From positions 366 through 64,365 of the forward strand of contig JBBIKM010000007.1 of assembly GCA_037445455.1 (NCBI GenBank): DNA of 64,000 bases. The letters run 5' to 3'. The DNA is from a bacterium. Lineage in GTDB: Bacteria > Zhuqueibacterota > Zhuqueibacteria > Zhuqueibacterales > Zhuqueibacteraceae. Under the pieces are notes generated by a model. That model was not told the DNA's origin. It did no database searches and worked only from the letters and a program-made list of their open reading frames with translations. The stretch's first letter is position 1. Each line of letters begins with the position of its first letter. A program made the position numbers and the translations under genes. Shown here piece after piece: positions 8,700 through 62,625 of this stretch.

Positions 8700-8703
8700 T
8701 TTT

Positions 8704-38188: not shown

Positions 38189-39223
38189 ATGAAAATGAAA
38201 AAACACTTTGCGCATATTCTCGTGTTGCTCATCCTGCCGATGACCGTGCTGGGAATCGAGCGGGTGGGCACCACCTCCTTTCAGTTCTTGAAAATCCCGG
38301 TGGGCGTGCGCGGCATCGGCATGGGCAACGCCTTTGTCGCGGGCGCGGTTGATGCCTCGGCGGTCTACTGGAATCCCGCCGGCCTGGGCTGGGCCTCCAA
38401 GAAGGAAGTCATGCTCACCCACATCAACATGCCGGCCGACATCAACTATGACAATGTTGCGTTGGTCCTGCCCATCTCCACCTCCCTGGGCTCGTTTGGG
38501 TTGAATATCGGCGTGTTGCATATGGACGATCTGATCGTGCGCACGCCCTCCCGGCCGGAGGGCACCGGCGAATTGATCACGGCTTCCGACATCGCGGTGG
38601 GCCTGTCCTACTCCCGTCAGGTGAGCAACCGCTTCACCTTCGGCGTGCAGGCGCGCTACATCCGCGAGGAACTGGCCAACTTCGTCTCCAGCGGTGTGAG
38701 CTTCGATGCCGGCCTGCAGTATCAAACCGATTTCCGGTCGCTGCGCCTGGGCATGGTGATCCAAAACTTCGGCGCCGACACCAAGTTTGATGGCGGCTTC
38801 CTGGACTATCGCACCGCCAGCACCACCGGCGGCCAGCCGCGCCGCCAGGATTTCGACTCCGCCCCCCTGCCGATCACGTTCAAGACCGGCGTGATGGCGG
38901 ATCTGGAATCGATGGTGGGCGTGGATCTGGGAGAAAGCCTCAAAGGCAACCTCGCCGCCCAGTTCGAGCATCCGGCAGACAACAAGGAACGCCTGAACGG
39001 CGGCCTGGAGCTGACCTTCAGCGAGCGCTTCTCGCTGCGGGGCGGCTATAACTACAACTATGATACCGACGGCTTCACGCTGGGCTTTGGCGTCAACGTG
39101 CCGTTCAGCGCGGAGAAGAACCTGCTGCGCGTGGATTATGCCTACGCCGATCTCGGCAATCTCACGGACACCAGTTCCTTTATGAATCAGCCGCACCGGT
39201 TTTCGCTGTCGTTTCAGTTTTGA
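38189..39223 (+). CDS. PorV/PorQ (UPF0164)-like outer-membrane barrel B
   Basis: FLKIPVGVRGIGMGNA, DASAVYWNPAGL, SFDAG, LGMVIQNFG, LP-TFKTG, GLE, LRGGY, DYAY, C-terminal SFQF. Paralog of 27118-28107. Confidence 0.88.
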   Translation: MKMKKHFAHILVLLILPMTVLGIERVGTTSFQFLKIPVGVRGIGMGNAFVAGAVDASAVYWNPAGLGWASKKEVMLTHINMPADINYDNVALVLPISTSLGSFGLNIGVLHMDDLIVRTPSRPEGTGELITASDIAVGLSYSRQVSNRFTFGVQARYIREELANFVSSGVSFDAGLQYQTDFRSLRLGMVIQNFGADTKFDGGFLDYRTASTTGGQPRRQDFDSAPLPITFKTGVMADLESMVGVDLGESLKGNLAAQFEHPADNKERLNGGLELTFSERFSLRGGYNYNYDTDGFTLGFGVNVPFSAEKNLLRVDYAYADLGNLTDTSSFMNQPHRFSLSFQF

Positions 39224-41428: not shown

Positions 41429-41780
41429 GCAGGGAAACTTTTCAGCGGCGCCCGAAAAAACTGCTGGACAAAGTTGATAGGAGTGTTTATTTTCGACAAC
41501 TTCTTCAAGAAGAGAGAACCGGCAAGCTGGCAGGACCGCGCGCGACGTTGCTTGACGGATTTCCTCACCAGCAATTGCCATACGTTGTTCACGCCTCAAT
41601 CCCAAGCGGAAGCGGCCCGGCGTCGCGAACCGGACCGGCAGTCGAATTGCTCCGATCCCTCCCGCCTCTTGATTCCTGAAGGGAGGTGATGCTGTCCTCT
41701 GAGATGAGCATCGGCTTTTGCATTTCGGCCACAATTACAACTCACATCATCCACCAATCACTCTGTGGAGGGTAGTACCC

Positions 41781-43550
41781 ATGCGTAAACTTTTTACCGC
41801 TATGCTGTGTTTGTGCTTTGCCGCGGCGGTGTTTGCTGGCACGGGCGCCAAGCAAGACCTGCACAAAATCGACAAAGCCAAGCGGCAGCAACTGATTCGC
41901 GGCGATGAACCGATCCCGGCGGTCGAGACGGGGCGAGTTTTGCACAAGACCAATGCCGTTGGGCCGGGCGTGTTGTTGATGGAATCGACCTATGATTATG
42001 GTTCCAATGGCGGCGTGTTGAGTAACCTCGTCGACTATGGCGATGGCACCCTGGCTGTCGGCCGCATGGGTGCCACCGATGCCGGCACGACCGATCGTGG
42101 CACTTATTTTTCCTATTTTGACGGCACCACCTGGTCGCCGATGACGAAAGTCGAGCAGGTGCGCCGCGGCTGGTCCAGCATTGCGGCGCTGGCGGACGGC
42201 CGCAGCGTCACGCTCTCCCACGTTGCCAACGAGGTGAACATCGACGCGCTCAAAGGCCTCGGCATTTGGACCAGCAGCATCACCGGTAATATCGGCGCAG
42301 CGGCGGATCAATGGCCGCGTTTGACCGTGGACGGCAAGAATAATATCATTATCTGCTCCACCACCAACGCCACGATTAACGGCGTGGCCCTGATCAAGAG
42401 CATTGCCGTGTCGCGCGATGAAGGCGCTACCTGGTCCTTCCAATACCTCTGGCCTGACACCAGCACCCGCAAACCCGGCTTCAGTGCGGATGATCAAGAC
42501 ATTGCCAGCCAGGGTGATAATGTTGCGGTGGTTGTGGCCGAGACCGGAAACGACATTCATCTGTGGACCAGTTCTGACAATGCCACGACCTGGACCTACC
42601 AGAATCTGACCAACAACCCGACAACCTTGCCCCCTGGCACTTCGGCTGACTTGCCCGCCGGCTCCTGTGATGTGCTGTACGACAACAACGGCAATCTCCA
42701 CATCTTCTGGGAGAGCTACACCGGATTGCCGGACTCCGCCGGCACGTCCATTGATCTCTTCGAAAGCGGCTCGGCCGGCATCTACCATTGGAGTGCCGCC
42801 ACCGGCATCACCGAAGTCGTCGACTTCAGCGATATCCCGGGCTCGGATCAGGAAATCGGCCTCTTCTCTGGCAACCTCGGTGCCTTCGATCAGCACAACG
42901 TGGATGGCAACGTTGTGTGCCAGCCCTCCGCCGGCGTGGATGCCGACAACAATCTGTATTTGTTGTTCGCTACTTTCCGTCCCAATGATTTCGATCCGGA
43001 TAGCGCACACTATACCGATGTCTATGCCATTGGCTCGGCCAACGGTGGCGCAAGCTGGGGTCCGGTGACCAACCTCACCGACACGCCGCAATCCGAAGAC
43101 TTGTGGGCCTCGCTGGCCCCCAATGTGGGCGACAGCCTGCGCTTCGTCTATTCCTCCGACGGCAGCACCGGCAACAGCATTCAGGGCGGCGGCACGGCAC
43201 CGACGAGCTATCTCTACTATGCCGTGCCGAAGAGCAAAATCGTGCTCACCGGTGTGAACGATCGCCCGGTCTCCAGTGTGCCGGCCTCGTTTGCGTTGCA
43301 TCAGAATTTCCCGAACCCGTTCAATCCCGCGACCAACCTCACCTTCGAAGTGAGCAAACCGGCGGAAGTCAACCTGAGCGTCTATGACGTGAATGGCAAG
43401 CTGGTGGCCACGCTGGTGAATGGCCTGGTGCAAGCGGGCAAACACAATGTCACCTGGAATCCCGCGAAGAACGTGTCTTCCGGCGTTTATTTTGCCAAGT
43501 TGAAGAGCGCCGGCTTTTCGCAGGTGACCAAAATGACGTTGATGAAGTAG
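41781..43550 (+). CDS. Secreted Asp-box (BNR-like) protein 1 with T9SS type A-like / FlgD-Ig C-terminal domain
   Basis: Signal peptide; SRDEGATW, SSDNATTW and SANGGASW Asp-boxes; FALHQNFPNPFNP-T..VYDVNG..SSGVYF..KMTLMK. Start placed at 41781. Confidence 0.8.
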   Translation: MRKLFTAMLCLCFAAAVFAGTGAKQDLHKIDKAKRQQLIRGDEPIPAVETGRVLHKTNAVGPGVLLMESTYDYGSNGGVLSNLVDYGDGTLAVGRMGATDAGTTDRGTYFSYFDGTTWSPMTKVEQVRRGWSSIAALADGRSVTLSHVANEVNIDALKGLGIWTSSITGNIGAAADQWPRLTVDGKNNIIICSTTNATINGVALIKSIAVSRDEGATWSFQYLWPDTSTRKPGFSADDQDIASQGDNVAVVVAETGNDIHLWTSSDNATTWTYQNLTNNPTTLPPGTSADLPAGSCDVLYDNNGNLHIFWESYTGLPDSAGTSIDLFESGSAGIYHWSAATGITEVVDFSDIPGSDQEIGLFSGNLGAFDQHNVDGNVVCQPSAGVDADNNLYLLFATFRPNDFDPDSAHYTDVYAIGSANGGASWGPVTNLTDTPQSEDLWASLAPNVGDSLRFVYSSDGSTGNSIQGGGTAPTSYLYYAVPKSKIVLTGVNDRPVSSVPASFALHQNFPNPFNPATNLTFEVSKPAEVNLSVYDVNGKLVATLVNGLVQAGKHNVTWNPAKNVSSGVYFAKLKSAGFSQVTKMTLMK

Positions 43551-43593
43551 GCCGGTATCGCACCGGACTGTCGTCTTCGCGTTTGAGATTCCC

Positions 43594-43636
43594 GCGCGTT
43601 GGGAGTGCCAGGCGGGAACAGGCACTCCCAACGCGC
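43594..43636. other. Perfect 16-bp inverted repeat between the two Asp-box genes
   Basis: GCGCGTTGGGAGTGCC (43594-43609) pairs with GGCACTCCCAACGCGC (43621-43636). Confidence 0.6.
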
Positions 43637-43670
43637 AGTATTCACACCGGTCATAATCTTCTGTGAGGTA

Positions 43671-45563
43671 ATGGCGATGCAAAATCTCCTTTTGACGAAG
43701 AGGGAATGCCGCAGGTTGTTCCAGGCGGTTCGTTACGCCGCAGTCTTTTGTCTGATGTTCGCAGTCGCCGCCTCTGCTATCGACCGCAAATCAGACAAGA
43801 GAATTCAAAAAGTAAAACGCGTCCCCGCTGTCGGCGCGCAGGACCTTCTGGCTGCTCAGGCGCAGCCCAAGACGCTGCGCAAGTCCGCAGCCAAAGCCGG
43901 CCCGGGTCTGCAACTGATCGAATCGACTTATGATTTCATGACCAACAACAACATGGGCCGGCACATTTACAATTATGGTGAGGGTATTCTGGCGGTTGCG
44001 CGCACCGCCTCAGAAGGTGCGATCGGCACCTGGCCCGATCGTGGAACTTTCTTTGCCTACAATGACGGCAATGGTTTCTTGCTGCCGATGACCAAGATCG
44101 AAACCGCCCGCGCCGGCTGGGGCAACATTTCGGCGACTGCCGACGGCCGGAGTGTCGTTGTTTCACATGGTGGTCTGCAGGTCAATGTCGATGCCCTGCA
44201 GGGCTTGGGCATCTGGACAGCATTCACGACCGGCAATTTCCCCTCAGGCTCAGATCTGACCTGGCCGCGCATCGCGGTTGATGGCAAGGACTATTTTCAC
44301 GTGGTGGTGACCCATTTCTCCTTTGACCCATTCCCGGGACTGGGCGGCGGCCAGTATCCGATCTACGGCCGTTCCACCGACGGCGGCATCACCTGGGAAT
44401 TCCGTTTCGCGTTTCAGAAACCCGGCGCGGCCGCCGGTGACCCGCCCGATACCACCAATGGCCTGTGGGTGGGCGGCGGTGATGCCGATGCCTATGCCAT
44501 CGACGCCTGGGGCGACAAGGTCGGTATTGCCGCGTTTGCCTCGTATGACGCCGGCTTTAACAGCAACGAGATTCTCTTTGCCGAGTCCACCGACAATGGC
44601 GCGACCTGGACGTGGACAAACATCACCAACGTCGGCAAGGGTGTGCCGCCCGCCGAAGGTGATTTTCGGCCCAACGGCCATCTCGATTTGATCTACGACA
44701 ACAACGGCATGCCGCACATCGTGTTCGAGAATTTCCTGGTGCTGCCGGATTCTGCCGGCACCGCGCCGGAATCTTTCCTGTACACCTTGTCGCCGCTGCT
44801 TCACTGGACTCCGACCCTCGGGGTCACGGAAGTGGCAACCCGCGCCGACATCGTTGGCGGTGAAGGCACCGGCTTCCCCAGCTCGGCAAACTGGGGCCGC
44901 GGTTTGGGCAGCGGTTTGTACTGGCCCTCCATCGGCGTGGATGCCAACAATGTTCTGTACGTTGCTTTCAGCGCGCCGACCCCGAATGACACGGATGCCG
45001 TGGGCTTGAATTATCTGGACATCTACGCCACTGGTTCCGCGGATGGCGGCGCCACCTGGGGCTCGCCGGTGGTGAACCTCACGGACTCCCGCGGCACCGA
45101 GGACAAATACGTGTCGGTGGCCAAGCGCGTGGACGAAAACCTGCACTTCGTCTACGGCTCGGATGATGTCAACGGCGGCGCCGTGCAGCCGGGTAATCAA
45201 ACGACGCCGACCTTCATGATGTACTACAGCTTCCCGGCCGCGCAGATTCCAACGACGCGCAGCAGTGTCTCCGATCGTGATCCCAGCGCGGGCCTGCCGG
45301 CGGATTATGCCCTGGCGCAAAACTTCCCGAATCCCTTCAATCCCGCTACGGCGATTTCGTTCAACCTGCCGGCAAGCGTGAAGGTGAAGTTGGAAATCTT
45401 CAACGCCATCGGACAGAAGGTTGCGACGCTGGTCAACAGCAAGCTTCCGGCAGGCAGCCATACCGCCACCTGGAATGCCGCGAACATGCCCTCCGGCATT
45501 TATTTCTACAAACTGCAAGCGGGCAACTTCAACCAGACCCGGAAGATGGTCTTGGCGAAATAA
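43671..45563 (+). CDS. Secreted Asp-box (BNR-like) protein 2 with T9SS type A-like C-terminal domain; paralog of 41781-43550
   Basis: Signal peptide; STDGGITW, STDNGATW and SADGGATW; YALAQNFPNPFNP-T..PSGIYFY..KMVLAK. Confidence 0.8.
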   Translation: MAMQNLLLTKRECRRLFQAVRYAAVFCLMFAVAASAIDRKSDKRIQKVKRVPAVGAQDLLAAQAQPKTLRKSAAKAGPGLQLIESTYDFMTNNNMGRHIYNYGEGILAVARTASEGAIGTWPDRGTFFAYNDGNGFLLPMTKIETARAGWGNISATADGRSVVVSHGGLQVNVDALQGLGIWTAFTTGNFPSGSDLTWPRIAVDGKDYFHVVVTHFSFDPFPGLGGGQYPIYGRSTDGGITWEFRFAFQKPGAAAGDPPDTTNGLWVGGGDADAYAIDAWGDKVGIAAFASYDAGFNSNEILFAESTDNGATWTWTNITNVGKGVPPAEGDFRPNGHLDLIYDNNGMPHIVFENFLVLPDSAGTAPESFLYTLSPLLHWTPTLGVTEVATRADIVGGEGTGFPSSANWGRGLGSGLYWPSIGVDANNVLYVAFSAPTPNDTDAVGLNYLDIYATGSADGGATWGSPVVNLTDSRGTEDKYVSVAKRVDENLHFVYGSDDVNGGAVQPGNQTTPTFMMYYSFPAAQIPTTRSSVSDRDPSAGLPADYALAQNFPNPFNPATAISFNLPASVKVKLEIFNAIGQKVATLVNSKLPAGSHTATWNAANMPSGIYFYKLQAGNFNQTRKMVLAK

Positions 45564-47492: not shown

Positions 47493-50400
47493 ATGGTACC
47501 GATGAATTCCAAGCTGTGGCTGCGGCGGGTGTGGTGGTTGGGATTGATGGTGGCGGTCTTTGGCTTCGGCGCCGCCCAAGCCCAGACGAAAATCATGCCG
47601 CTGGGCAACTCGATCACCGAGGGCACCGGCTCCTCAAATAATGCCGGTTTTCGTTACTTTCTCTTCAATCTCCTGAGCAATGCCGGAACTTCGTTTGATT
47701 TTGTCGGCTCGCTGCAAGACGGCAGCGGTTTCCCGGACACCGAGCATGAGGGCCACAGCGGCTTTCGCGCCGAACAGTTGGACGTGACCACTTATCTCAC
47801 GCAACACAACCCCGACTACGTCCTGCTGGAAGTCGGCACCAATGACATTTCGCAAAATGACACGCCGGCGCAAGTGCGGGACGACATCGCCGCGATCCTG
47901 GACGCCATCCACGCCTACAATCCCGCCATCCGCACCTATCTTTCCACCGTGGTGCCGCGCAAGGACAATGCAGCGAAAGAGACGGCCACGCAAAACCTCA
48001 ATGCCCTGCTGCCCGCGCTGGTGAGCGCCAAAGTTGCCGCCGGGCACCAGGTGGTGTTGGTCGACAATCACGATCGCCTGACTGCCGATCCAAACTGGCA
48101 GACCACGCTCATGGCCGACAACCTTCATCCCAATGATGGCGGCTATGAGCTGATGGCCACCGAGTTCTTCAACGCCATCCAGGGCTATCAACCCGGGGTC
48201 GATGATTTTGCCGACGATTTCAACAGCGGTGTATTGAGCACGAACTGGACGGCGCATCCCGGTTTCCAGGTGCAAAGCAATCAACTCGTGAATACTTCCA
48301 CAGTCGACGCCTGGAACAACCACCTCGCCATCCCCAATGTCATCACCAATCCCAACGTTGTGGAATTCACCTACGGCAGTCTCTCCAATGCCGAGGGCCG
48401 CTATTTCACCGGCGTGGCGCTGCTGCTGGACAAGGCGGCCACGGATGCCAGCGGTTATCTGCTGTTGCGCAATGAAACCAGCGTGCGGTTGTTCACGATC
48501 GTGAACGGCGTGCCGGGCGCGAGCGTGGCAACTGTGGCCGGCACCGTGGCGACGCCGCCACAGGCCGGCGACCGGCTGCGGGTGGAATGGCGCAGCGATA
48601 GCAACGGCCATCACTTTGTCGTTTATCTGAACGATCAACTCGATGCGGTGGTGGACGACCCTGCCAGATTGCAGGGCAACGCGGTGACCACCTATGCCGG
48701 CATGATGGTGCACGGCAACACCACCGACGGCGTGGATGATTTTCATCTGTTCAAGCAGACCGACTCGACACCGCCGGCTTTTGTTTCGGATTTGTCTGCG
48801 ATCAACGTGACCTCCGCGACCGTGGAACTGCGCTGGCGCGCGCCGGGCGACGACGGTGACACCGGCACCGCCCGCTCCTATGACCTGCGTTACTCGACGG
48901 CGTTGATCACCGAAAGCAATTTCAACAGCGCCACACCAGTGGCCGGCGTGGGCAATCCCAAACCCGCGGGCAGCGTGGAGAATTTTACCGTGGGTGGCCT
49001 GCAGAGCGGCACGCGTTATTACTTTGCGCTGAAAAGCTCCGACGAAGTCGGCAACACCTCCGGCTTGTCAAATGTCGTGGCGGCGACGACGACTGCGCTG
49101 ACGCTGAGCAGCGACACGTTCGACCGGCCCGGCCCGAGTTTGGGCGCCAATTGGGCGGCAGATGCGCGGCTGCAGATCATCAACAACGAAGTGCAGCACA
49201 CCGCCACGATCGACATTTGGACGCCGGCCGTGTTCAAACTGGGCCGCAACGCGCAGGAAGTCAGCATCGTGTGGGGCGGGAATGCCACGGTCTACGGCGC
49301 GAATTTTTCCGGCGTGCTGGTGCTGGCCGACAGCTTCAACACCCGGCCGAACGGTTACATGATCCAGCACTCGAACGAGCGCGGCAAAACGCGGTTGTGG
49401 CGCATGCAAAACGGCAACCTGACGACGATGCTCGATGAGGGCAACGCCTTCGGTCCGAACACCAGGGCGGGCAGCGAGATGAAAGTCATCATCCGCAGGG
49501 AAGCCGCGGCGCACTTCTTTGATGTTTACATCAACGGCGTGTTTGACCGCACGCTCTCCGATCCCGCCAAGTTGGAGAACGGCTCGTACTCCGGTTTTGT
49601 GCTGGAGAGCACGCTGGGCGCGGAGAATGCCATCACGCGTTTTGCAGTCGGCGTGCTGCCGAGTTCGCCGGCCAAACTGCTGGTGGTGAGCGGCAACAAC
49701 CAGACGGGCCGGGTCAGACAGAAGCTGGCGAATCCTCTGAAGGTTTCGTTGTACGACAGCTTTGACAATCCCGTGCCGGGCGCAGAAGTCAACTTCACCG
49801 CGACGGTGGGGCAGGCCAGCTTCAGCCGGGCGGACAACAATATTCGCATCGAGGCAGAATCCGGCCAGATAACCGCGCCGATCGTGGTGCAGGATGATCC
49901 CGAAGCCTCAGGCGGCAAGTACATCGTATATCCGGTGCCACAAAATGAAGCCGGCTCGGCCGTGTACACGTTCAACATTCCGGTGAGCGGCACTTACTAC
50001 ATCTGGGCGCGCAATCTGACCCCGGGTGAGAGCGGCGCCAACTCCTGGACCGTGAGCGTCGATGGCGGCAATCCTTTCATCTATGACGTGTTTCAAGGCC
50101 AGCGTTCCAACACCTGGAAATGGGATTTGCTCAGCGAGCGCGGCACCGGCAATCCCTCCAATCCGCAATTCGACCCCAAGACTTTCGATTGGGCTGCCGG
50201 CACGCACACGCTCGTGGTCGAAGGCCGCTTCGATCGCGCCCGGCTCGACAAGTTCCTGATCACGCGCGACGCGAGCTACATTCCGCAAGACAAGGAGGAA
50301 GGCGGCAGCCGTACGGATGAAAACGGCATTGCCAGCACCGAGGTCATGCTCGGCACGCTCGCCGGTCCCATCAAAGTGGAGGCCCAGTTCGGCGGCCTGC

Positions 50401-53400
50401 TGCCGGCCCTGTTCAATTTGACCGCGCAGCCGGGCTTTCCGGGTGGCTTGGCACAGGCAACTGGCAGCGGGCAATCCGGCCCGGCCGGCCAGTTGCTGGC
50501 GCAGCCCTTCACGGTGGTGGTGACGGACAGTTTTGGCAATCCCACAGCGAACGGCCGCGTCTCCTGGGTCGTCACGGAAGGGAACGGCCAGCTTTCGAGC
50601 TATCGTGCCACCAGCGATTCCACCGGCAAAGTCGAAGTCGGTTTCGCGCCCGGCAACGGCAGCAGCCAGAACAAAGTGGTTGCGGCAGCGGCCTTCACCA
50701 ATCAACGCTTTGAGTTCACCGCGCAGACCACCAGCGGCGTGGCAACAGCCGCAGAGTTGGTGAGCGGTTCCAATCAAACCGGCGGCGTCGCCAGCACTTT
50801 GCCGGCGCCATTGGTGATGCGCGTTGCGGATGCCGGTGGCCAGCCAGTTGCGGGTTTTCCGGTTGAGTTTGAAACCGTGCGCGGCGGCGGCACGACCACC
50901 GGCCACAATGCCGTGGCGAACGGTGGCTTTGAGCGCGGGAATAATAATCTGCCCGGCCAGTGGACGCTGGAAGGCAGTCCCACCACCGACGAAGTCCGGC
51001 TGAATCCCAGCAACCCGCAAGCGGGCAGCCGCAGCGTGCTGGTCAATGCCAACCGCAATGCCGTGGGCGTGTCGCAGGTGATTTCGTACGCCGCCAACAC
51101 CAGCTACACGCTGACGTTTTGGGCAAAAGTCGACAGCGGCGTGCTGCGCGTGACCTGGCGCATGAATGATGCGGCCGGCAATCTGCAGGACACCATCGTC
51201 GATGTGACGCCGGAGGCCACCGCCGGCGCGTGGCGTCGCTACATGGTCACGGCCACCAATCAAGCGGCAGCCAATCGTCCGCTGTTTTTCCGCACGTTGA
51301 ACAGCGGAGAATTTCGTGTGGATGAAGTCAGCGTGGTGCGCAATACCGGCGCCGACGGCCGCCTGGCGGTGAACTGGACTTTGGGTGACACGGTGGGAAC
51401 GCAGCAGGTACGTGCCATGGCGCGCAATGCCAGCGGCACCAACTTGAGCGGCTCGCCGGTGTTGTTCACGGCCCAGGCCACGGTGGGCGCAGCCGCAAAG
51501 CTGGTGGAAGTTGGCGGCAACAATCAATTGGGCACCGCCGGTCAGCCGTTGGGTGCACCCCTGGTGGTGAAGGTGACGGACGTGGTGGGTAATCCCGTTT
51601 CCAACATCAGCGTGTTGTTTGAGGTGATTCAAGGGGGCGGCAATCTCGCCGGCGCAGCCACGGCCAATGCGGTGACCGATGCCCAGGGCCTGGCTCAGGC
51701 GGTTCTTACGCTGGGCACCAATCCGGCGGTGAGCAATCAGGTGCGCGCCAGCGCGACCGGCTTGACGGGCAGCCCGATCATCTTCACGGCGAGCATCGGC
51801 ACACCGGCCAGGCTTGCCAAGATCTCGGGCGACAATCAGGTGGGTACTGCTGGTTCTGCGGCGCCTGCCAATCTCGTGGTGAAGATCACAGATGCCGGCA
51901 ACAAAGCCATCTCAGGCGCCTCGGTGACGTTCACGGTGCAGCAGGGCAACGGTACGATTAACGGCAACAGCAACGCAATCCTGCGCACGGATGGCAACGG
52001 CGAGGCGCGCGCGACCTTTGTCCTCGGCCCGCTGGCCGGCGGTGAAAACCGCGTGCGGGCATCGGCCGAGTTCAACGGCCAGGCTTTGCAAGGCTCCCCG
52101 CAGAATTTTGTGGTGAAGGCGGCGGCGCTCAAGGAGATGGTGATCGCGGACGGGAACAATCAAGTTGGCCTCGCCGGCGAGCCGCTGGCGAATCCCCTGC
52201 GCGTCACGTTGCTGGATACCCTCAATCACGGCGTGCCGCAACAGCAGGTGACATTCACCGTGATCGAAGGCGGTGGCAAGCTCGACAACGGCAGCACCGC
52301 CAGCACGGTCAGCACGGATTCCACCGGCCGGGCGCAGGTGCGGCTCACGCTGGGTTCGCAAATCGGTACGAATAACAACAAAGTGCGGGCGCAGGCAGCG
52401 CTTCCGGTGCCGGGCTCCCCGCAGATTTTCCAGGCCAGCGCCCAAGTCGGCCCGCCGGCAGTGTTGAAGAAGATCGACGGTGACAGTCTCTCCGGTGTGG
52501 TGAACAATCCCCTGCCCAAGCCACTCGTGGTACAGGTGACGGATCGCGCCGGCAACCCGTTGTTCGGCGTCAATGTGGTCTTTGAGGTGCTGGAGGGCGG
52601 CGGCAATTTTGACGGCGTGACCAAAGACACGGTGACCACCAATGATCTCGGCCGCGCGCAAGTCACGCTGACGTTGGGCGCCACTTCGGGCCTGTACAAC
52701 AACAAAGTGCGGGCGCGTGCGTTCAACGGCTCGCTCGAGCTGCAAAACTCGCCGATGCTGTTCGTGGCCACGGCCGCGCCCAGCAGGGCGCGCGTGCTGG
52801 CGATCACGGCAGGCAACCGGCAGCAAGGGTTGGCGGGCGAGCCGCTGGCTGAGCCGTTGCGCGTGCGCGTGCTCGACATTCAGGGCAATCCGATCAAGGA
52901 TCATCCCGTGCGCTTCCGTTCCAGCGGCGCAGCCAACGGCACTTTTAGCGCCACCGGCACAACCGACACCACGGCCATCACCAATGCCAATGGCATCGCC
53001 GCCGTGACGTGGATCCTCGGCCGCTCGATCCTGCCGGACAGCCAGACGGTGATCGCAACCGCCAACGACGGTCTGCAGAACCTGCAAGGCTCGCCGGCAA
53101 CGTTCAAAGCAGCGGCTGTTGCCGGGCTGCCCAGCGCTGCAACGTCCAGCATCACCGCCACCGGGCCGGTGCCGGCCAACGGCCAGAGCCGCTCCACCAT
53201 CACCGTCACGGTGAAGGACAAGTTCGGCAATGTGATTGCAAACCAGCCGGTACAACTCATCGTCTCCGGCTCGAACAACAACATTCAACAAACCGGCAAC
53301 ACCGACGCGCAGGGTCGCGCCACCGGCTCGCTGGCCTCGACCAAAGCCGAGCTTAAGATCATCACCGCCAAAGTGGCCGGTGTGTATGAAATCAAGCCCG

Positions 53401-55790
53401 GCACCAGCGTGCGCTTCAACCCGCTGGCCGCCACGCAAATGGCGATTCGCAGCGGCCACAGCCAGACCGGCAACGTCAACACGGCGCTGTTGGAGCCGCT
53501 GAGCGTGCTGGTGACGGACCAATTCAACAACGGCGTGCCCAATGTGGCGGTGGAATTCAACGTCGAGGCCGGCGAGGGCCGTCTGCTCGGCCCGAACACG
53601 GTGGTGACCGACACCAATGGCGTGGCGGCGATCCAGTACGTGCTCGGCCCAAGCGTGACCGAGAATCGCGTGCGCGCCACTTCCACCGGCTTGCGGAATT
53701 CGCCGCTCATCTTCGTGCTTAATGCCGTCAACAATCCGGCGCGCAGCCTGCAACTGATTTCCGGCAACGGCCAAACCGGCGTGGTGCTGGAAGATCTGCT
53801 GCAGCCGCTGGTGGTGGGCGTGGTGGACAAGGACAACCGTCCGGTGGCCGGCAAGACCATCAAATTCGAAGTGACGTTCGGCGGCGGCCAGGTCAATGGC
53901 GGCCAGAGCGCGAACGTGAGCAGTGATGAATTTGGCCTGGCGAAAGTGGTCTGGCGCCTCGGGCCCAGTGCGGGCTTGAACGTTGCACGCGCGAGTGGCT
54001 CCAACTTGAACAATTCGCCGCTCGATTTCCAGGCGCAGGCGCGCACCGGCCGGCCCACCAGCCTCGTGCAAGTGAGCGGTGACGGCGCCGCCGGGCCGGT
54101 CAATCAGACTCTGGCCACGGCGCTGGTGGTGCGCGTGGTGGATGCCAACAGCAACGGCATCGACGGCGTGCCGGTGATTTTCGAGCTGATTCAGGGCACG
54201 GGCCAGCTTGCCAACGGCTTCGTCAACACCGCCAATGGCGGCTTTGCTTCCACGCAAATCACCTTTGATGGCGTGAGCGGCCCGCGCAAAATTCGCGCGA
54301 GTTCCAACGGGTTGACCAACTCACCGTTGTACTTCACGGTGACTGCCACGCCGAGCGCCGCCAGCCGGATGCAGGTGGTGGCGCGCACCAACAACCAGAG
54401 CGGTACCGCCGGTCTGCCGTTGAATTTTCCGCTGCAGACCAAGGTCACCGACGCGTACGGCAATGCGATTGCCGGCGTGCCGATCAGCTATGTGGTGAAG
54501 AAAGGCGGCGGCAATTTTGCGGGACAGGCGGCGGCCACGGTCATGACCAATGCGCAAGGCCTCGCGCAAATCCCGTGGACCGTTGGCCCCGGCGCCAATG
54601 AAGCCGAAGCCATCGGCACCGGCCTGACCGGCTCGCCGATCGAATTCAAGGCCACCGGCGTGATCGGCAACAACTTCCCGATCATCGTCGACGTGCCGGA
54701 TCAGCAAGCCGTGGAAGGCACGCGCATCGAATTTGTGATCAGTGCGGCGGATGCGGACAACGAGGCCATTCGCTACCGCGCGGCCAATCTGCCGCCCGGT
54801 GCGGTGTTCGACTCGCTCGGCACCCGCATCTTCACCTGGCAAACTGATCTCACCAGCGCCGGCCGTTATGAAGTCAGCTTCTTTGCGCGCGACTTGCGCG
54901 GCGGCCAGGACGAAGAGATCGTCGTCATCGAGGTGGCGAACCGCAATCAACCGCCGGTGATCGTCAGCCGCATTCCGGTCGGCGTGCCGGGCGCGCCGCA
55001 GGACACCACGGTGCTGAGCGGCAAGCTCACCATGCGCGTCAACGCGGTTGACCCCGACGGCGACGTGTTGAGCTATCGCTGGTACTTGAACGGCGAGCTG
55101 ACCAGCGCCATTACCAACACCTTTGAGTTCGACAGCAAGATTAAACTCAATGCGGTGGAAGCCTGGGTGTTCGATCTGGAAGACACGGTGCGCACGCGCT
55201 GGACGGTGCGCACGCCGGTGCAGCTCGAAACCTTCACCGCCACCGCGGTGGAGGGCAAGGGCGTGCGCCTGGAATGGGTCACCGCCGGCGAGACTGAGAA
55301 CGCCGGGTTCAACTTGCTGCGCAGCCGCAGCCGCGAGGGTGAGTATGAAAGCATCAATGTGCAGATCATTACCCCGAGCCTGGACGGCCGTTATTCCTAC
55401 CTCGACACCGAGGTCGAAGTCAACGCCCGTTACTTCTACAAGCTTGAGGACATCGATCTCAACGGCAACATTACCGTGCACGGCCCGGTGGAGATCACCG
55501 TGGCGCCGCCCGCGCGCTTCGACTTGGCGCAGAATTACCCGAACCCGTTCAACCCGTCCACCAACATCCGCTATCAACTGCCGCAGGAAACCCGGGTCAA
55601 GCTCGTGATCTACAACCTGATCGGTCAGGAAGTGCGCGAGCTGGTGAACACCATCATGCCGGCAGGTTATCACACCGCGGTGTGGGACGGCCGCGACCAG
55701 CGCGGCAAGCTGGTGCCCTCGGGCATCTACTACTATCGCCTCGAGGCCGGCGGCCAGGTGATGGTGAAACGCATGACGTTGCTGAAGTAA
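47493..55790 (+). CDS. Giant (2765 aa) secreted SGNH esterase / lectin-like / FN3 / Big_1 Ig-repeat protein with T9SS type A-like C-terminal domain
   Basis: Signal peptide; SGNH blocks GNSIT, HEGHSG, GTND and DNLH; two beta-sandwich modules; FN3; about 13 SG-NQ-G..L--PL-V-V-D--GNPV repeats; cadherin/He_PIG-like module; PVQLETF; LAQNYPNPFNPST..KRMTLLK. Confidence 0.9.
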   Translation: MVPMNSKLWLRRVWWLGLMVAVFGFGAAQAQTKIMPLGNSITEGTGSSNNAGFRYFLFNLLSNAGTSFDFVGSLQDGSGFPDTEHEGHSGFRAEQLDVTTYLTQHNPDYVLLEVGTNDISQNDTPAQVRDDIAAILDAIHAYNPAIRTYLSTVVPRKDNAAKETATQNLNALLPALVSAKVAAGHQVVLVDNHDRLTADPNWQTTLMADNLHPNDGGYELMATEFFNAIQGYQPGVDDFADDFNSGVLSTNWTAHPGFQVQSNQLVNTSTVDAWNNHLAIPNVITNPNVVEFTYGSLSNAEGRYFTGVALLLDKAATDASGYLLLRNETSVRLFTIVNGVPGASVATVAGTVATPPQAGDRLRVEWRSDSNGHHFVVYLNDQLDAVVDDPARLQGNAVTTYAGMMVHGNTTDGVDDFHLFKQTDSTPPAFVSDLSAINVTSATVELRWRAPGDDGDTGTARSYDLRYSTALITESNFNSATPVAGVGNPKPAGSVENFTVGGLQSGTRYYFALKSSDEVGNTSGLSNVVAATTTALTLSSDTFDRPGPSLGANWAADARLQIINNEVQHTATIDIWTPAVFKLGRNAQEVSIVWGGNATVYGANFSGVLVLADSFNTRPNGYMIQHSNERGKTRLWRMQNGNLTTMLDEGNAFGPNTRAGSEMKVIIRREAAAHFFDVYINGVFDRTLSDPAKLENGSYSGFVLESTLGAENAITRFAVGVLPSSPAKLLVVSGNNQTGRVRQKLANPLKVSLYDSFDNPVPGAEVNFTATVGQASFSRADNNIRIEAESGQITAPIVVQDDPEASGGKYIVYPVPQNEAGSAVYTFNIPVSGTYYIWARNLTPGESGANSWTVSVDGGNPFIYDVFQGQRSNTWKWDLLSERGTGNPSNPQFDPKTFDWAAGTHTLVVEGRFDRARLDKFLITRDASYIPQDKEEGGSRTDENGIASTEVMLGTLAGPIKVEAQFGGLLPALFNLTAQPGFPGGLAQATGSGQSGPAGQLLAQPFTVVVTDSFGNPTANGRVSWVVTEGNGQLSSYRATSDSTGKVEVGFAPGNGSSQNKVVAAAAFTNQRFEFTAQTTSGVATAAELVSGSNQTGGVASTLPAPLVMRVADAGGQPVAGFPVEFETVRGGGTTTGHNAVANGGFERGNNNLPGQWTLEGSPTTDEVRLNPSNPQAGSRSVLVNANRNAVGVSQVISYAANTSYTLTFWAKVDSGVLRVTWRMNDAAGNLQDTIVDVTPEATAGAWRRYMVTATNQAAANRPLFFRTLNSGEFRVDEVSVVRNTGADGRLAVNWTLGDTVGTQQVRAMARNASGTNLSGSPVLFTAQATVGAAAKLVEVGGNNQLGTAGQPLGAPLVVKVTDVVGNPVSNISVLFEVIQGGGNLAGAATANAVTDAQGLAQAVLTLGTNPAVSNQVRASATGLTGSPIIFTASIGTPARLAKISGDNQVGTAGSAAPANLVVKITDAGNKAISGASVTFTVQQGNGTINGNSNAILRTDGNGEARATFVLGPLAGGENRVRASAEFNGQALQGSPQNFVVKAAALKEMVIADGNNQVGLAGEPLANPLRVTLLDTLNHGVPQQQVTFTVIEGGGKLDNGSTASTVSTDSTGRAQVRLTLGSQIGTNNNKVRAQAALPVPGSPQIFQASAQVGPPAVLKKIDGDSLSGVVNNPLPKPLVVQVTDRAGNPLFGVNVVFEVLEGGGNFDGVTKDTVTTNDLGRAQVTLTLGATSGLYNNKVRARAFNGSLELQNSPMLFVATAAPSRARVLAITAGNRQQGLAGEPLAEPLRVRVLDIQGNPIKDHPVRFRSSGAANGTFSATGTTDTTAITNANGIAAVTWILGRSILPDSQTVIATANDGLQNLQGSPATFKAAAVAGLPSAATSSITATGPVPANGQSRSTITVTVKDKFGNVIANQPVQLIVSGSNNNIQQTGNTDAQGRATGSLASTKAELKIITAKVAGVYEIKPGTSVRFNPLAATQMAIRSGHSQTGNVNTALLEPLSVLVTDQFNNGVPNVAVEFNVEAGEGRLLGPNTVVTDTNGVAAIQYVLGPSVTENRVRATSTGLRNSPLIFVLNAVNNPARSLQLISGNGQTGVVLEDLLQPLVVGVVDKDNRPVAGKTIKFEVTFGGGQVNGGQSANVSSDEFGLAKVVWRLGPSAGLNVARASGSNLNNSPLDFQAQARTGRPTSLVQVSGDGAAGPVNQTLATALVVRVVDANSNGIDGVPVIFELIQGTGQLANGFVNTANGGFASTQITFDGVSGPRKIRASSNGLTNSPLYFTVTATPSAASRMQVVARTNNQSGTAGLPLNFPLQTKVTDAYGNAIAGVPISYVVKKGGGNFAGQAAATVMTNAQGLAQIPWTVGPGANEAEAIGTGLTGSPIEFKATGVIGNNFPIIVDVPDQQAVEGTRIEFVISAADADNEAIRYRAANLPPGAVFDSLGTRIFTWQTDLTSAGRYEVSFFARDLRGGQDEEIVVIEVANRNQPPVIVSRIPVGVPGAPQDTTVLSGKLTMRVNAVDPDGDVLSYRWYLNGELTSAITNTFEFDSKIKLNAVEAWVFDLEDTVRTRWTVRTPVQLETFTATAVEGKGVRLEWVTAGETENAGFNLLRSRSREGEYESINVQIITPSLDGRYSYLDTEVEVNARYFYKLEDIDLNGNITVHGPVEITVAPPARFDLAQNYPNPFNPSTNIRYQLPQETRVKLVIYNLIGQEVRELVNTIMPAGYHTAVWDGRDQRGKLVPSGIYYYRLEAGGQVMVKRMTLLK

Positions 55791-56194: not shown

Positions 56195-58558
56195 CTACTT
56201 GGTCAGCAGCATGCGCTTGGTGAGCACTTGCGCGCCGAAGCGCAGGCGGTAGAAATAGACACCCGAAGCCAGCGCAGAGCCGTCAAAGGGGACTTCATGA
56301 CGGCCGGCAACCAGATGCTCATCAACCAACACCGCGATTTCCTGCCCCAGCGTGTTGTAGATCGCCAGGCGCGCGGCGCCGTTCGCCGGCAGGTTGAAGA
56401 CGATGATGGTAACAGGATTGAACGGGTTGGGATAATTCTGCTCCAGGCTGAATTGCTGCGGGATTTCCGGATTTTCCGCCACCGCGGTGCCGCTGCCGGT
56501 CTTGAAGCGCCAGGCCTCCGACCACAAGCCGACACCGATGGCATTTGTTGCCCGCACGCGCCAAAAGTAGAAACGATTTGCTTCCAGGCCGCTGGCCGCA
56601 AATGAGGTATCGCTCAGACTGCTTTCAGCGACCACCAAAGCGGTCGAATCGAAGGTCAGGCTGCGCGCGACCTGCAGGTCATAGGAACTTGCCGCAGCAG
56701 AACGCCGCCACTGAAACACCGGATTCAGCGCAATCTCGCCGGTGTTGTTTGCCGGAGAAACCAGCAAGGGCGCGGCCGGGAATCCCGTGGTAAAACTGAA
56801 AGCCTGCGAGAAGAAACTCGTGCCCCCGGCATTGCTCGCGCTGACCCGCCAGAAGTACTTGGTCTGTCCCGCCAGCCCGGTGATGGTTTTGAAGGTATCC
56901 ACCACCCCGGTTTCATTCACCAGCAGCGCGGTTGCAAAGCTGGAATCGCTGGCCACCTGCACGTGATAGGAGGTTGCGGTTGCCGGGGCATACCAGCGCA
57001 ACGTGACGTTCGGCGCCAGGTCGAGTGCGCCATTCGCGGGCAAAGCCAGCAGCGGCACAGCCGGCGGCAGCACCTGAATCACATTGCTCATTTCGCTTTC
57101 GTTGAAATTGCGATCGAGCGCCGTCACCACGTAGTAGTGCGGACCATTGTCCGACGGCGTCGGCAACAGCGCGGCGTTCTCACCGACAACTGCCGCGATC
57201 TTGCTCGGATCCTCCAAGTCGGCGGGACTGACATTGGGTGTAGTGAAATGATAGACGGCGTAACGCGAAGCGGTATCGCCGTCGCCGGCCGGCGGCGGCG
57301 CCTCCCAGCGCAGCGCGGCGGGGCCGCCGGCGGCCAGGCGTTCATAGCGCAAATTCTGTGGGGCATTGGGCAGCACGCTGTCCTTCCACGCCATCACCGG
57401 CGGCAAGGCGGGATAGCGAAAGAGATCGGTGCGCAGGCTGTCGGCGAAGCCCTTGGCATTGTCGCGGAAAAACAGCGCGCGGAACATGATGCTGCCCTGC
57501 ACCTCGGGATTGGCGCGATTGGCGCGCACCTGCCGCGGGATTTCGTTGGCCGGCCAGTTGGCGGCGCGATAGATGGCCTGGCCGGGATAGAAATGCCGGC
57601 TGTTGCGTTGCGAGGCCCACCACGGCATGAGCTTGCCGTAATCCTGGCCGCCGCCGAAGGGCCAGTAGAGCTGCGGGGTGATGTAATCGACGATCTGCCG
57701 CTGCAGCCAGGCCACCGCGTCGCAATAGATCGTGCTGTAGGCATCCAGGCCGGTGATGCCGGCAGGCACGCCGTTCTTCCAAATGCCGAACGGGCTCATG
57801 CCGAATTTCACGTGCGGCTTGACCGCTTGAATGCTGTCGTGAATCGTTTGAATGAGCAGATTGACGTTGTCGCGCCGCCAGTCGGCAAGGTTGGTGAAGC
57901 CGCGGCTGTAATTCGCAAAAGTCGCGGCGTCTTGATTGCCGATTTGATTGGGCGGATAAGGATAGAAATAATCGTCGAAGTGGACGCCGTCAACATCGTA
58001 GCGGCTTACCACGTCCATCACCACGTTGGTGATGTGCTGGCGCGCCTGCGGCAGGCCGGGATCGAGAATCTTGATCGTGCTGATCTGAATCACCCAGTCC
58101 GGATGCTGCACGGAAACATGGCGGGGATCATTGGGATAGTTGCCCACTTCCCGCGAGACGCGATAGGGATTGAACCAGGCATGCAGTTCCATGCCGCGCT
58201 GGTGCGCCTCCTGAATCGCGAATTCCAGCGGATCATAGAAGGGCGAAGGCGCCAAACCCTGGCCGCCGGTCAGCCAGAATGACCAGGGCTCAAGCGTCGA
58301 GGGGTACATGGCATCCGCTTCGGAGCGGACTTGAAAAATCACGGCATTCACATGATGGGTCTGCAGCTCATCCAGCAGCCGCACCAGCTCGGCGCGCTGC
58401 GCGGCGGGCGTGAGATAGGGCGAGCTGGGCCAGTCGAGATTGATCACCGTGGCGATCCACGCACCGCGAAACTCACGCTTGGGCGGCAGGGATTGCGCGG
58501 AGGCGGAAAAGGACGCGGTGAGCAAAAGCAGCGAGCAGAGCAGGAGCAATTTCTTCAT
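56195..58558 (-). CDS. GHL10 (DUF187, YddW/DigH-like) glycoside hydrolase with FN3 repeats and T9SS type A-like C-terminal domain
   Basis: REFRGAWIATV-NLDWP, FQVR..DAMYPS, HAWFNPYR, YDVDGVHFDDYFYPY, FGMSPFGIW, DYITPQLYW; FN3 modules; LEQNYPNPFNP..KRMLLTK. Confidence 0.92.
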   Translation of the reverse strand: MKKLLLLCSLLLLTASFSASAQSLPPKREFRGAWIATVINLDWPSSPYLTPAAQRAELVRLLDELQTHHVNAVIFQVRSEADAMYPSTLEPWSFWLTGGQGLAPSPFYDPLEFAIQEAHQRGMELHAWFNPYRVSREVGNYPNDPRHVSVQHPDWVIQISTIKILDPGLPQARQHITNVVMDVVSRYDVDGVHFDDYFYPYPPNQIGNQDAATFANYSRGFTNLADWRRDNVNLLIQTIHDSIQAVKPHVKFGMSPFGIWKNGVPAGITGLDAYSTIYCDAVAWLQRQIVDYITPQLYWPFGGGQDYGKLMPWWASQRNSRHFYPGQAIYRAANWPANEIPRQVRANRANPEVQGSIMFRALFFRDNAKGFADSLRTDLFRYPALPPVMAWKDSVLPNAPQNLRYERLAAGGPAALRWEAPPPAGDGDTASRYAVYHFTTPNVSPADLEDPSKIAAVVGENAALLPTPSDNGPHYYVVTALDRNFNESEMSNVIQVLPPAVPLLALPANGALDLAPNVTLRWYAPATATSYHVQVASDSSFATALLVNETGVVDTFKTITGLAGQTKYFWRVSASNAGGTSFFSQAFSFTTGFPAAPLLVSPANNTGEIALNPVFQWRRSAAASSYDLQVARSLTFDSTALVVAESSLSDTSFAASGLEANRFYFWRVRATNAIGVGLWSEAWRFKTGSGTAVAENPEIPQQFSLEQNYPNPFNPVTIIVFNLPANGAARLAIYNTLGQEIAVLVDEHLVAGRHEVPFDGSALASGVYFYRLRFGAQVLTKRMLLTK

Positions 58559-60372: not shown

Positions 60373-62625
60373 CTATTTCACAAACAGCATGCGCTTGGTG
60401 AGAACTTCGTTCTCGAATTTCAGGCGATAGTAGTAGGTGCCGGTGGCCAGGCCGGTGGCGTCAAACTTCAGGTTGTGGTTGCCGGGCGCCATCATCTGAT
60501 CAACCAGAGTGGCGACCTGGCGGCCCATCATGTCGAACACCACCACTTGCACGCGCCCCTGCTTCTGCAAGCTGAAGGGGATCGTGGTCTGCGGGTTGAA
60601 CGGGTTGGGATAGTTCTGGAACAACTGGAAGGTTTCCACATAGGCCCAGTTGCTCTCCCGGCCTTCCACGCTGGTGCCCACGCGCATGAACTTCTGCACG
60701 ATCGGATAGTCGCTGGCGCCGAAGCAGAGCACATAGGCAATGTTGCGATTCGGGCTGAAGGCAATGCCGCGCGGCCGTTCATTGGCGTTCATGGGCGTGT
60801 TGAACTGCCATTCAATCCAATCGACGATCTCATTGGTCGCCGGATCATAGGCATACCAAACGTTTGGCTTCCAGAAAGTCGTCGCGCCCGGGAAACGATT
60901 GGGCAGATCGTTGTAGGAGCCGGCGCTGAACCAGAGCTGGGTGCCGTTGGGATCCCACACCACGGATTCGCAGTCAAAGCCCTTCAACAGCGTGTCAGTG
61001 ACGGCGAAGGCCGAAAACTCGTCCGGACGGGTGTACTTGTAAACTGCGTGAGTGGTGTAACCGCACCAGTAGATGGTGTTACCATCCTTGGAAACTTCAA
61101 AGCTGCGGGAGAAGCCCACCGAGCTGTCCACCGCATTGCCCAGGAAATTGAAATCCTTGTCAAAAATCTTGATGGCGTTTGGAGGAATCACTGGTGCGGT
61201 GAAGAGATTGCCCTGGGCATCCACTGCCGGCGCGGTGAGCGTGACGCCTGCCGTCGGTATCACTTTGGCCAAGCCGGCACCGGTCTTGTAGTCGATCCGA
61301 TAAACTGCATCGAAATGAACCGCCAAGATGTTGCCGTCATAATCCGTGCGCAGGCCGCGGGCGCTGTTGTACAGCGTGTCGGTCACGCCACCGACGGTGA
61401 TGGTCTTGATCGGTGAGAACGGCGCCGGCGTGCCGTCGGGGGTGAAGACGTTGAGCACGCGCGTAGCGCGCTTGTTGCCAGCCGCGGTGGTGATACTGTC
61501 ACTGGCGCCGAAGAATTGCACCCAGACTTTGCCGTCCGGGTCGACCGCGATGCCGTGGCCGCCCGAGAAGCCCTTGAAATTGTCGTTGGGGAAATTGCTC
61601 TTCGAAGTGGCCGGGAAACTGCTTTGCAGGCGCTCGAACTTCTGCACGATTGGATAATCGCTGGCGCCGAAGCAAGTCACGTACGCGGTGTTGCCATCCG
61701 GGCTGAAGGCGATGCCGCGCGGCCGCTCATTGGCGTTCATGGGCGTGTTGAACTTCCACTCGATCTTGTCCACCACTTTGTTGTTCACCGGATCGTAGGC
61801 GTACCAGGTGTTGGGCTTCCAGTAGGTGGTGGCGCCCGGGAAGCGATTGGGCAGATCGTTGTAGGAGCCGGCACTGAACCAAAGCAGGGTGCCGGTCGGG
61901 TCCCACACCACGGATTCGCAGTCAAAGCCCTTCAACAGCGTGTCAGTGACGGCGAAGGCCGAAAACTCGTCCGGACGGGTGTACTTGTAAACTGCGTGAG
62001 TGGTGTAACCGCACCAGTAGATGGTGTTACCATCCTTGGAAACTTCAAAGCTGCGGGAGAAGCCCACCGAGCTGTCCACCGCATTGCCCAGGAAATTGAA
62101 ATCCTTGTCAAAAATCTTGATGGCGTTTGGAGGAATCACTGGTGCGGTGAAGAGATTGCCCTGGGCATCCACTGCCGGCGCGGTGAGCGTGACGCCTGCC
62201 GTCGGTATCACTTTGGCCAAGCCGGCACCGGTCTTGTAGTCGATCCGATAAACTGCATCGAAATGAACCGCCAAGATGTTGCCGTCATAATCCGTGCGCA
62301 GGCCGCGGGCGCTGTTGTACAGCGTGTCGGTCACGCCACCGACGGTGATGGTCTTGATCGGTGAGAACGGCGCCGGCGTGCCGTCGGGGGTGAAGACGTT
62401 GAGCACGCGCGTAGCGCGCTTGTTGCCAGCCGCGGTGGTGATACTGTCACTGGCGCCGAAGAATTGCACCCAGACTTTGCCGTCCGGGTCGACCGCAATG
62501 CCGTGGCCGCCCGAGAAGCCCTTGAAATTGTCGTTGGGAAAATTGCCGGCGAATTTCCATTGCGCCTGGCTGCTGGTTGCCGCCAGCGCGAGAACGACGA
62601 CCAAGGCTGATAGCCATTTAGACAT
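60373..62625 (-). CDS. Secreted tandem beta-propeller-like protein (two 316-aa repeats) with T9SS type A-like C-terminal domain
   Basis: Signal peptide; the unit GHGIAVDPDGKVW..RPRGIAFSP occurs twice; FQNYPNPFNPQT..KRMLFVK. Confidence 0.85.
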   Translation of the reverse strand: MSKWLSALVVVLALAATSSQAQWKFAGNFPNDNFKGFSGGHGIAVDPDGKVWVQFFGASDSITTAAGNKRATRVLNVFTPDGTPAPFSPIKTITVGGVTDTLYNSARGLRTDYDGNILAVHFDAVYRIDYKTGAGLAKVIPTAGVTLTAPAVDAQGNLFTAPVIPPNAIKIFDKDFNFLGNAVDSSVGFSRSFEVSKDGNTIYWCGYTTHAVYKYTRPDEFSAFAVTDTLLKGFDCESVVWDPTGTLLWFSAGSYNDLPNRFPGATTYWKPNTWYAYDPVNNKVVDKIEWKFNTPMNANERPRGIAFSPDGNTAYVTCFGASDYPIVQKFERLQSSFPATSKSNFPNDNFKGFSGGHGIAVDPDGKVWVQFFGASDSITTAAGNKRATRVLNVFTPDGTPAPFSPIKTITVGGVTDTLYNSARGLRTDYDGNILAVHFDAVYRIDYKTGAGLAKVIPTAGVTLTAPAVDAQGNLFTAPVIPPNAIKIFDKDFNFLGNAVDSSVGFSRSFEVSKDGNTIYWCGYTTHAVYKYTRPDEFSAFAVTDTLLKGFDCESVVWDPNGTQLWFSAGSYNDLPNRFPGATTFWKPNVWYAYDPATNEIVDWIEWQFNTPMNANERPRGIAFSPNRNIAYVLCFGASDYPIVQKFMRVGTSVEGRESNWAYVETFQLFQNYPNPFNPQTTIPFSLQKQGRVQVVVFDMMGRQVATLVDQMMAPGNHNLKFDATGLATGTYYYRLKFENEVLTKRMLFVK

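Follow-up and report, generated by a model that had tools for sequence, protein, structure and literature searches.

Two stalk repeats of a giant predicted surface protein from Zhuqueibacterota are interrupted at the same loop by putative carbohydrate-binding modules

A stretch of 64,000 nucleotides (the window) from contig JBBIKM010000007.1 of assembly GCA_037445455.1, positions 366 to 64,365 of the forward strand, was analysed here. It originates from an uncultured hot-spring bacterium of the family Zhuqueibacteraceae and contains, at positions 47493-55790 of its forward strand, a gene of 2765 amino acids (aa) free of internal stops, as established from its open reading frame, its translation and scans against Pfam and NCBIfam. 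The product is a predicted giant secreted surface protein which displays, in this order, a signal peptide, an esterase head, an fn3 domain, 13 Big_1 repeats, a series of He_PIG, Big_9 and cadherin-like domains and a type IX secretion system (T9SS) sorting domain. Two of the 13 stalk repeats, the first (R1) and the third (R3), are split immunoglobulin (Ig)-like repeats, each being discontinuous in sequence around a complete foreign domain. The interrupted loop is the same in both, the inserted modules are identifiable, the arrangement is conserved among homologs, one module is replaced by another in some of these, and the two halves of the split repeats co-vary. The protein is, with good probability, a T9SS-exported rod in which R1 and R3 bear carbohydrate-binding modules (CBMs) as side branches.

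The 13 repeats, R1 to R13, were segmented over aa 723-2391 and aligned with MAFFT. The two long insertions, 158 aa in R1 and 149 aa in R3, fell in one gap block of this alignment, located after the pattern ..V.F.V..GgG.. and before.TD..G.A. Split repeat R1 (aa 723-979) is composed of an N-terminal half (aa 723-780; 49659-49832), insert 1 (aa 781-938; 49833-50306) and a C-terminal half (aa 939-979; 50307-50429). It is separated by R2, an intact Big_1 repeat (aa 980-1080; 50430-50732), from split repeat R3 (aa 1081-1330), where the corresponding segments are an N-terminal half (aa 1081-1133; 50733-50891), insert 2 (aa 1134-1282; 50892-51338) and a C-terminal half (aa 1283-1330; 51339-51482). Repeats R4 to R13 form an uninterrupted Big_1 rod (aa 1331-2391; 51483-54665), as also indicated by the matrix of identities between repeats. 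All these features, like the other parts of this gene given below, are encoded on the forward strand. In the alignment, the residues that make up the core in strands B, C, E, F and G were still present in the halves.

A hidden Markov model (HMM) trained on the 11 intact repeats, without R1 and R3, matched each split repeat twice and with complementary coverage. The N-terminal half of R1 matched model positions 2-77 (43.6 bits), the final ~20 columns being an overrun into the insert, and its C-terminal half matched positions 64-94 (6.7 bits, independent E-value 5e-4). The halves of R3 matched positions 2-60 (38.9 bits) and 34-106 (25.0 bits), respectively. Intact R2 matched positions 1-105 with 96.9 bits, and repeats R4 to R13 displayed matches of 70-121 bits each. 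On the sequence level, R1 and R3 are Big_1 (PF02369) repeats over their whole length. An earlier note on this DNA had proposed that modules were inserted within stalk repeats, twice at the same loop, and that the flanking pieces were not additional domains but complemented each other as the two halves of a single Big_1 repeat. The shared gap block and the complementary half-matches bear out both statements. The strings it quoted were all found in place, namely IRIEAESG at aa 784 (49842), DKFLIT at aa 919 and SRTDENGIAST at aa 939 (50307) for repeat 1, and NAVANGGFE at aa 1139 (50907), FRVDEVSV at aa 1274 and RNTGADGRLA at aa 1283 (51339) for repeat 3.

AlphaFold2 (AF2) models, which had been suggested as a check on whether the halves fold together, were built for two segments with family alignments (one of them of 62 rows). 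The segment aa 718-1436 displayed a mean predicted local distance difference test (pLDDT) score of 92.7 with a predicted TM-score (pTM) of 0.71, and the segment aa 718-985 reached 90.0 and 0.69, respectively. Both halves of both split repeats were confidently modelled, with block pLDDT of about 86-98, and their strand pattern was that of the intact repeats. AF2 strands in the N-terminal half of R1 were found at 9-16, 21-23, 32-38, 48-55 and 58-62 (pLDDT 86-98), corresponding to A, A', B, C and a short C', and those of its C-terminal half, assigned to D, E, F and G, at 229-236, 241-248 and 255-262 (pLDDT 89-98). The strands of the halves, as defined by DSSP, mapped one-to-one onto those of intact R2 and R4, so that the order in the split repeats is A, A', B, C, short C', insert, D, E, F and G. 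Judging by strand order, the chain turns at GGG and then descends along the sandwich edge, and the insertion point would lie within this descending segment, some way along it. Each module is entered and left via one loop and the rod continues from strand G; side-branching is therefore topologically necessary if the split repeat is a single domain.

Covariation between the halves was analysed by mean-field direct coupling analysis (mfDCA), trained on 1227 intact repeats from 121 family proteins (effective number of sequences, Meff, 803) from which the split repeats had been excluded. The strongest couplings join the two halves and connect strands B and E (27-75, 28-72, 28-70), C and F (53-85, 49-88, 47-90) and A and G (9-99), which is the pattern of an antiparallel Ig sandwich. 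A half-repeat alone would therefore be unable to close the sandwich. The split repeats were then aligned to the model with their halves concatenated and the insert removed, and native pairs of N- and C-terminal halves were compared with halves shuffled among orthologs. Over all 2451 cross-half pairs, the native signal amounted to z 6.4 for R1 and z 1.7 for R3. It rose to z 10.3 and z 6.0, respectively, over the top 30 predicted contacts, where none of 5000 shuffles reached the native value. The native gain per contact pair was 0.13 (R1) and 0.05 (R3), versus about 0.001 in the bottom half of pairs, and this restriction to contact pairs argues against a lineage artefact. According to the models and the couplings, both split repeats are very probably single Ig-like domains; topology, model confidence and covariation together argue, indirectly but consistently, for this single fold and for a sideways projection of the modules.

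Insert 1 was modelled as a beta-jelly-roll. When the AF2 model of R1 was searched with Foldseek, it superposed on the CBM35 structures 2w47_A, 2wz8 and 2w1w_A (target-normalised TM-score, TMt, 0.74-0.75; probability 1.00), on the CBM6 structures 5fui (TMt 0.75; probability 1.00) and 1uxz (0.71) and on the C-terminal domain of glycoside hydrolase family GH115 (6nps). The overall TMt range was 0.66-0.75 over about 150 residues. Insert 1 thus shares its fold with the CBM35 and CBM6 modules of glycoside hydrolases and with the GH115 C-terminal domain, but differs from them in sequence, with identities of only 16-23 % and no Pfam match to CBM_6 or CBM_35. Its first strand displays an EAE motif and its last strand a D motif, as in CBM6/35, where we take them to represent a structural Ca site. 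The Pfam matches it did produce were sub-threshold (PPC, 22.6 bits; Golvesin_C, 19 bits). At E<=1e-3, an exhaustive phmmer search gathered 3285 representative proteins related to insert 1. Among the 150 relatives listed, most contain two to four matched stretches per protein, not a loop insertion. The relatives sampled match Pfam GH115_C, and one of them, P0129, additionally matches CBM_6/CBM_35 on a neighbouring stretch. Insert 1 is best called CBM35/6-like by modelled fold only, within the galactose-binding-domain-like superfamily, and the CBM6/35-like label given to it in the earlier note stands in that sense.

Insert 2 had been described as CBM4/9-like, and it does match Pfam CBM_4_9 (PF02018) above the cutoff of 25.9, with 33.6 bits when excised and 27.8 bits within the whole protein. 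By phmmer it weakly resembled the CBM16 entries 2zew and 2zey, none of the matches in the PDB sequence search being significant. Foldseek results for the 719-aa model (aa 718-1436) were mostly meaningless long multi-domain alignments with root-mean-square deviations of 25-65 Å, and only the matches to CBM16-1 (3oea_A/2zew_A, TMt 0.77) were usable. These came without query coordinates, and they probably belong to insert 2, which on its own weakly matches the same entries by sequence.

Homologs of the protein were labelled 'candidate division KSB1 bacterium', some members also bearing the label Calditrichota. The nearest named genome was that of Candidatus Coneutiohabitans thermophilus (Zhuqueibacterota), at 91 % identity. 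Among the 120 full-length homologs listed, about 70, with identities as low as 38 %, displayed the S-F-S-F x10 layout with both inserts, and about 30 further ones the R1 insertion alone. A scan of genome contigs returned one close relative and one weak match only. The genome itself carries two tandem paralogs on contig C60 (loci L003 and L002), at positions 8178-8972 (within a 2635-aa frame) and 16982-17758 (within a 2826-aa frame), which are 48 % identical over repeat 1 and display S-F-S-F with both inserts. An assembly error, a frameshift or another artefact of a single sequence was ruled out by the layout kept in the approximately 70 homologs and in these two paralogs. Pairs on the same contig were also encountered among the homologs, for example P0035/P0056 and P0014/P0026, each of these two comprising one member with an SGNH hydrolase head and one without.

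A tree was derived from 99 family members, each at least 2400 aa long and possessing a module recognisable in repeat 1; their C-terminal 1100 aa were used. The R1 insertion was present at all 99 tips, as follows from the selection of members, while the R3 insertion defined one clade of about 70. In three proteins (P0092, P0097 and P0118) the R1 loop contained malectin instead of the CBM35/6-like module. Two of this trio were tested and gave Pfam E-values of 4e-32 and 8e-30 for malectin; repeat 1 of P0092 spans about aa 735-992. In R3 of these proteins, the usual site was occupied by a module which is divergent and gave no Pfam match. The trio is nested in a clade bearing the usual module, which points to an origin of malectin by replacement. 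Three other homologs, P0108 (aa 1247-1521), P0111 (aa 1234-1544) and P0119 (aa 1233-1537), displayed a CBM4_9-like module in the F-G loop of repeat 4, just before 'LPGSPVNFNATA'. In these three and in their sister P0112, the loop normally used in repeat 3 contained an insertion of roughly 25 aa only. In the search of representative proteins, P0246 (920 aa), of unrelated architecture, displayed two tandem CBM35/6-like modules splitting one Big_1 repeat (31-70 / 381-420) and a second split repeat (537-590 / 746-784) containing one module.

Identities between repeats were taken from seven proteins with a clean 13-repeat pattern. The scaffolds of R1 and R3 were 31.8 % identical and no nearer to each other than other repeat pairs (R3 and R4 shared 38 %), and an origin of R3 by duplication of an already split R1 was rejected on these figures. 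Since the two scaffolds are not sister repeats, their insertions look independent. Positions 55-61 formed the most length-variable loop of the 1227 intact repeats, with insertions of up to 15 aa and deletions in 30-43 %; next in variability were the loops E-F and F-G. Because the repeat has three indel-tolerant loops, two insertions in the same one are not improbable, and for two independent insertions the coincidence would arise by chance in roughly 1 case in 3. The modules thus landed where the fold tolerates indels. What goes beyond chance is that they have been conserved for long and that a third type of module has used the loop again.

Several results weigh against the reading of R1 and R3 as split domains with lateral CBMs. 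With pTM at about 0.7, the orientation of modules relative to the rod is only moderately confident. The all-pairs covariation was weak in R3 and, for both split repeats, remained below that of the held-out intact controls (z 14 for R2 and z 9 for R4). Insert 1 stayed below every Pfam CBM threshold, including those of the CBM_6 and CBM_35 profiles, and a PDB sequence search with the excised insert gave no match. The marginal z of 1.7 and the mere 6.7 bits of the C-terminal half of R1 would suit modules that are ordinary end-to-end domains, the half-repeats being decayed remnants or linkers with no joint Ig fold. Such an arrangement is very improbable, considering that the halves cover the model in an exactly complementary manner, still have the core residues of five strands, were modelled at pLDDT 86-98 and co-vary specifically at the B-E, C-F and A-G contact positions; decayed linkers would not be expected to persist, as the halves did, throughout the family's history and at identities as low as 38 %.

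Another possibility is that the architecture is right and the jelly-rolls are not carbohydrate binders, serving instead in protein or mineral binding or as a structural buttress of the head-proximal rod. Comparable folds are known in non-lectin roles, insert 1 has no curated CBM family match, and the proteins in which its relatives are found display beta-helix, cadherin-like and PKD domains but lack an obvious glycosidase. On the other hand, the structures nearest in fold are, in their great majority, CBM35, CBM6 and CBM16 with bound sugar, insert 2 lies above the CBM_4_9 threshold, and the domain replacing insert 1 in some homologs, malectin, is glycan-binding. The same protein carries a head resembling carbohydrate esterase family 3 (CE3), next to a GHL10 gene, and a role other than sugar binding appears rather improbable. 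Somewhat less unlikely, though still disfavoured, is that the shared loop is purely permissive, the most indel-tolerant site, with no functional gain from its position. The length variability of positions 55-61, the CBM4_9-like module in the other variable F-G loop of P0108, P0111 and P0119, and the unrelatedness of the R1 and R3 scaffolds would all agree with it. Permissiveness is, however, compatible with lateral modules and not opposed to them, and selection on geometry is suggested by position and short linkers having been kept in about 100 proteins and by malectin having taken over at the same site.

In the reading favoured here, the protein would be exported by the T9SS and its C-terminus would then be anchored at the outer membrane. 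The 13 Big_1 repeats, tens of nanometres in length, would hold the CE3-like acetyl-esterase head distal from the cell. In R1 and R3, the repeats nearest to the head, the chain would exit after the short C', fold a jelly-roll CBM and return for strands D to G. The modules would be side branches, situated beneath the head, because the rod continues from strand G; binding sites may be gained in this manner with neither a lengthening of the stalk nor an extra joint. They could hold acetylated polysaccharide for the esterase, the ligand probably consisting of acetylated hemicellulose-like glycans. In paralogs deprived of the SGNH head, the modules would serve plain adhesion.

We propose that the insertion loop acts as a reusable socket for modules. 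It is more tentative, and slightly less than evenly balanced, that, across T9SS surface rods of the FCB group, the loop after C' constitutes a general evolvable socket for lectin cassettes, into which CBM35/6-like, CBM4_9 and malectin modules, even two in tandem, were plugged, long kept and exchanged while the rod remained undisturbed. If true, a lineage could retarget an enzyme-tipped fibre to new glycans via cassette replacement.

Split Ig-like domains were already described in RTX adhesins of the type I secretion system (T1SS): MpIBP of Marinomonas primoryensis projects a PA14 domain, and FrhA of Vibrio cholerae projects peptide-binding and sugar-binding domains via a split Ig-like domain (PMC10865825). 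The authors argued that the split domain points the binding module off axis, its termini being on one side (PMC10865825). As in those adhesins, a sequence-discontinuous Ig-like rod domain contains here an inserted, putatively ligand-binding beta-sandwich, located in that distal portion of a very long rod of repeats which would bind ligands; module termini on one side and the binding site on the other, with projection off the adhesin axis, would also be shared, this geometry being predicted for the present protein (PMC10865825). In contrast, the present protein belongs to phylum Zhuqueibacterota/KSB1 and ends in a T9SS type A C-terminal domain, its scaffold is an ordinary Big_1 stalk repeat recognisable by sequence, its inserts are CBM35/6-like, CBM4_9 or malectin, and its rod has an esterase head. 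Homology to RTX adhesins was not detected. RTX families were absent from the Pfam and NCBIfam scans of the protein, whose C-terminus carries a T9SS and not a T1SS signal, and membership of the RTX (T1SS) adhesins was rejected on these grounds. The protein would work like RTX adhesins without belonging to their family.

Invasin and intimin have a stalk of the same repeat family (Big_1 PF02369, Invasin_D3). They carry a lectin-like binding domain at their distal end, placed end to end after the last Ig domain, and we know of no module inserted inside one of their repeats. They are type Ve autotransporters and not T9SS cargo. Beta-sandwiches interrupted by a whole functional domain also exist in Gram-positive pilus adhesins (RrgA) and, with CUB/TED or MG6, in alpha-2-macroglobulin/C3; families, inserted domains and functions of these are unrelated to those of the present protein. 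A literature search on CBMs inserted in Ig-like domains returned nothing relevant. One paper on the phylum mentioned only counts of carbohydrate-active enzymes, and neither secretion nor adhesins turned up when its text was searched.

The layout is clear yet precedented, split Ig domains being known in a different class of bacterial adhesins. It opens no long-standing question and its mechanism is conventional. The split Ig-like principle, so far encountered in T1SS RTX adhesins of Proteobacteria, would be extended to unrelated T9SS-exported, esterase-tipped Big_1 rods of an uncultured phylum. The homologs, about 100 in number, constitute a natural series (no insert, a short one, one module or two, a different module, a different loop) which may inform on the positioning of CBMs beside a surface-tethered carbohydrate esterase and could guide the engineering of Ig-like rods with grafted binding modules. 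The layout is also of use for annotation, where domain finders give broken Big_1 matches in giant surface proteins.

As read from the translation, the N-terminus is hydrophobic and the signal peptide ends in AQA-Q. The head (aa 34-224; 47592-48164) matched Lipase_GDSL_2 with 84.9 bits versus a cutoff of 32.9 and displays all four SGNH blocks, GNSIT, GHSG, GTND and DNLHP, which carry the catalytic Ser, Gly, Asn and His. Its closest solved structure was 2vpt_A (E 4.4e-26), followed by the acetyl esterases 5b5s/5b5l (E about 1e-12), all of which we take to be CE3 carbohydrate esterases. Motifs and matches identify the head as a predicted SGNH hydrolase of CE3-like carbohydrate esterase type. The fn3 domain (aa 431-529) is flanked on either side by a beta-rich region for which the Pfam scans returned no family match. 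These two regions, aa 236-426 (48198-48770) and aa 540-721 (49110-49655), resemble each other, both beginning with D.F.....LG..W and finishing with ..HF..VY.N...D. They look like candidate concanavalin/LamG-type lectin domains.

Over the whole protein, Pfam scores amounted to 256.9 bits for Big_1 and 58.3 bits for Invasin_D3, and MG-type domains were among the Foldseek and Pfam neighbours. Repeat 9 (aa 1877-1977; 53121-53423) was divergent, with 17-26 % identity to the other repeats. It yielded the best Invasin_D3/Big_1 Pfam stretch, and the homologs preserve it in this divergent form; a hinge or some specialised function is conceivable for this repeat. At the C-terminus, the T9SS type A sorting domain (aa 2682-2761; 55536-55775) matched TIGR04183 with 32.6 bits versus a cutoff of 23. 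The Pfam profile FlgD_ig matched there with 39.9 bits, and Por_Secre_tail fell below threshold. The Sec signal peptide and the type A sorting domain together mark the protein as predicted T9SS type A cargo.

Genes nearby code for other T9SS cargo, including several proteins with T9SS sorting domains, for a PorV-like protein and a TonB-dependent receptor, and for a glycosidase-like protein of the GHL10 family. The gene is surrounded by a secretome island, with members at 38189-39223 and 41718-45563 on the forward strand and at 56195-58558 and 60373-62625 on the reverse strand. The GHL10-family glycosidase-like protein, with fn3 and a C-terminal sorting domain, is encoded on the opposite strand just downstream of the gene.

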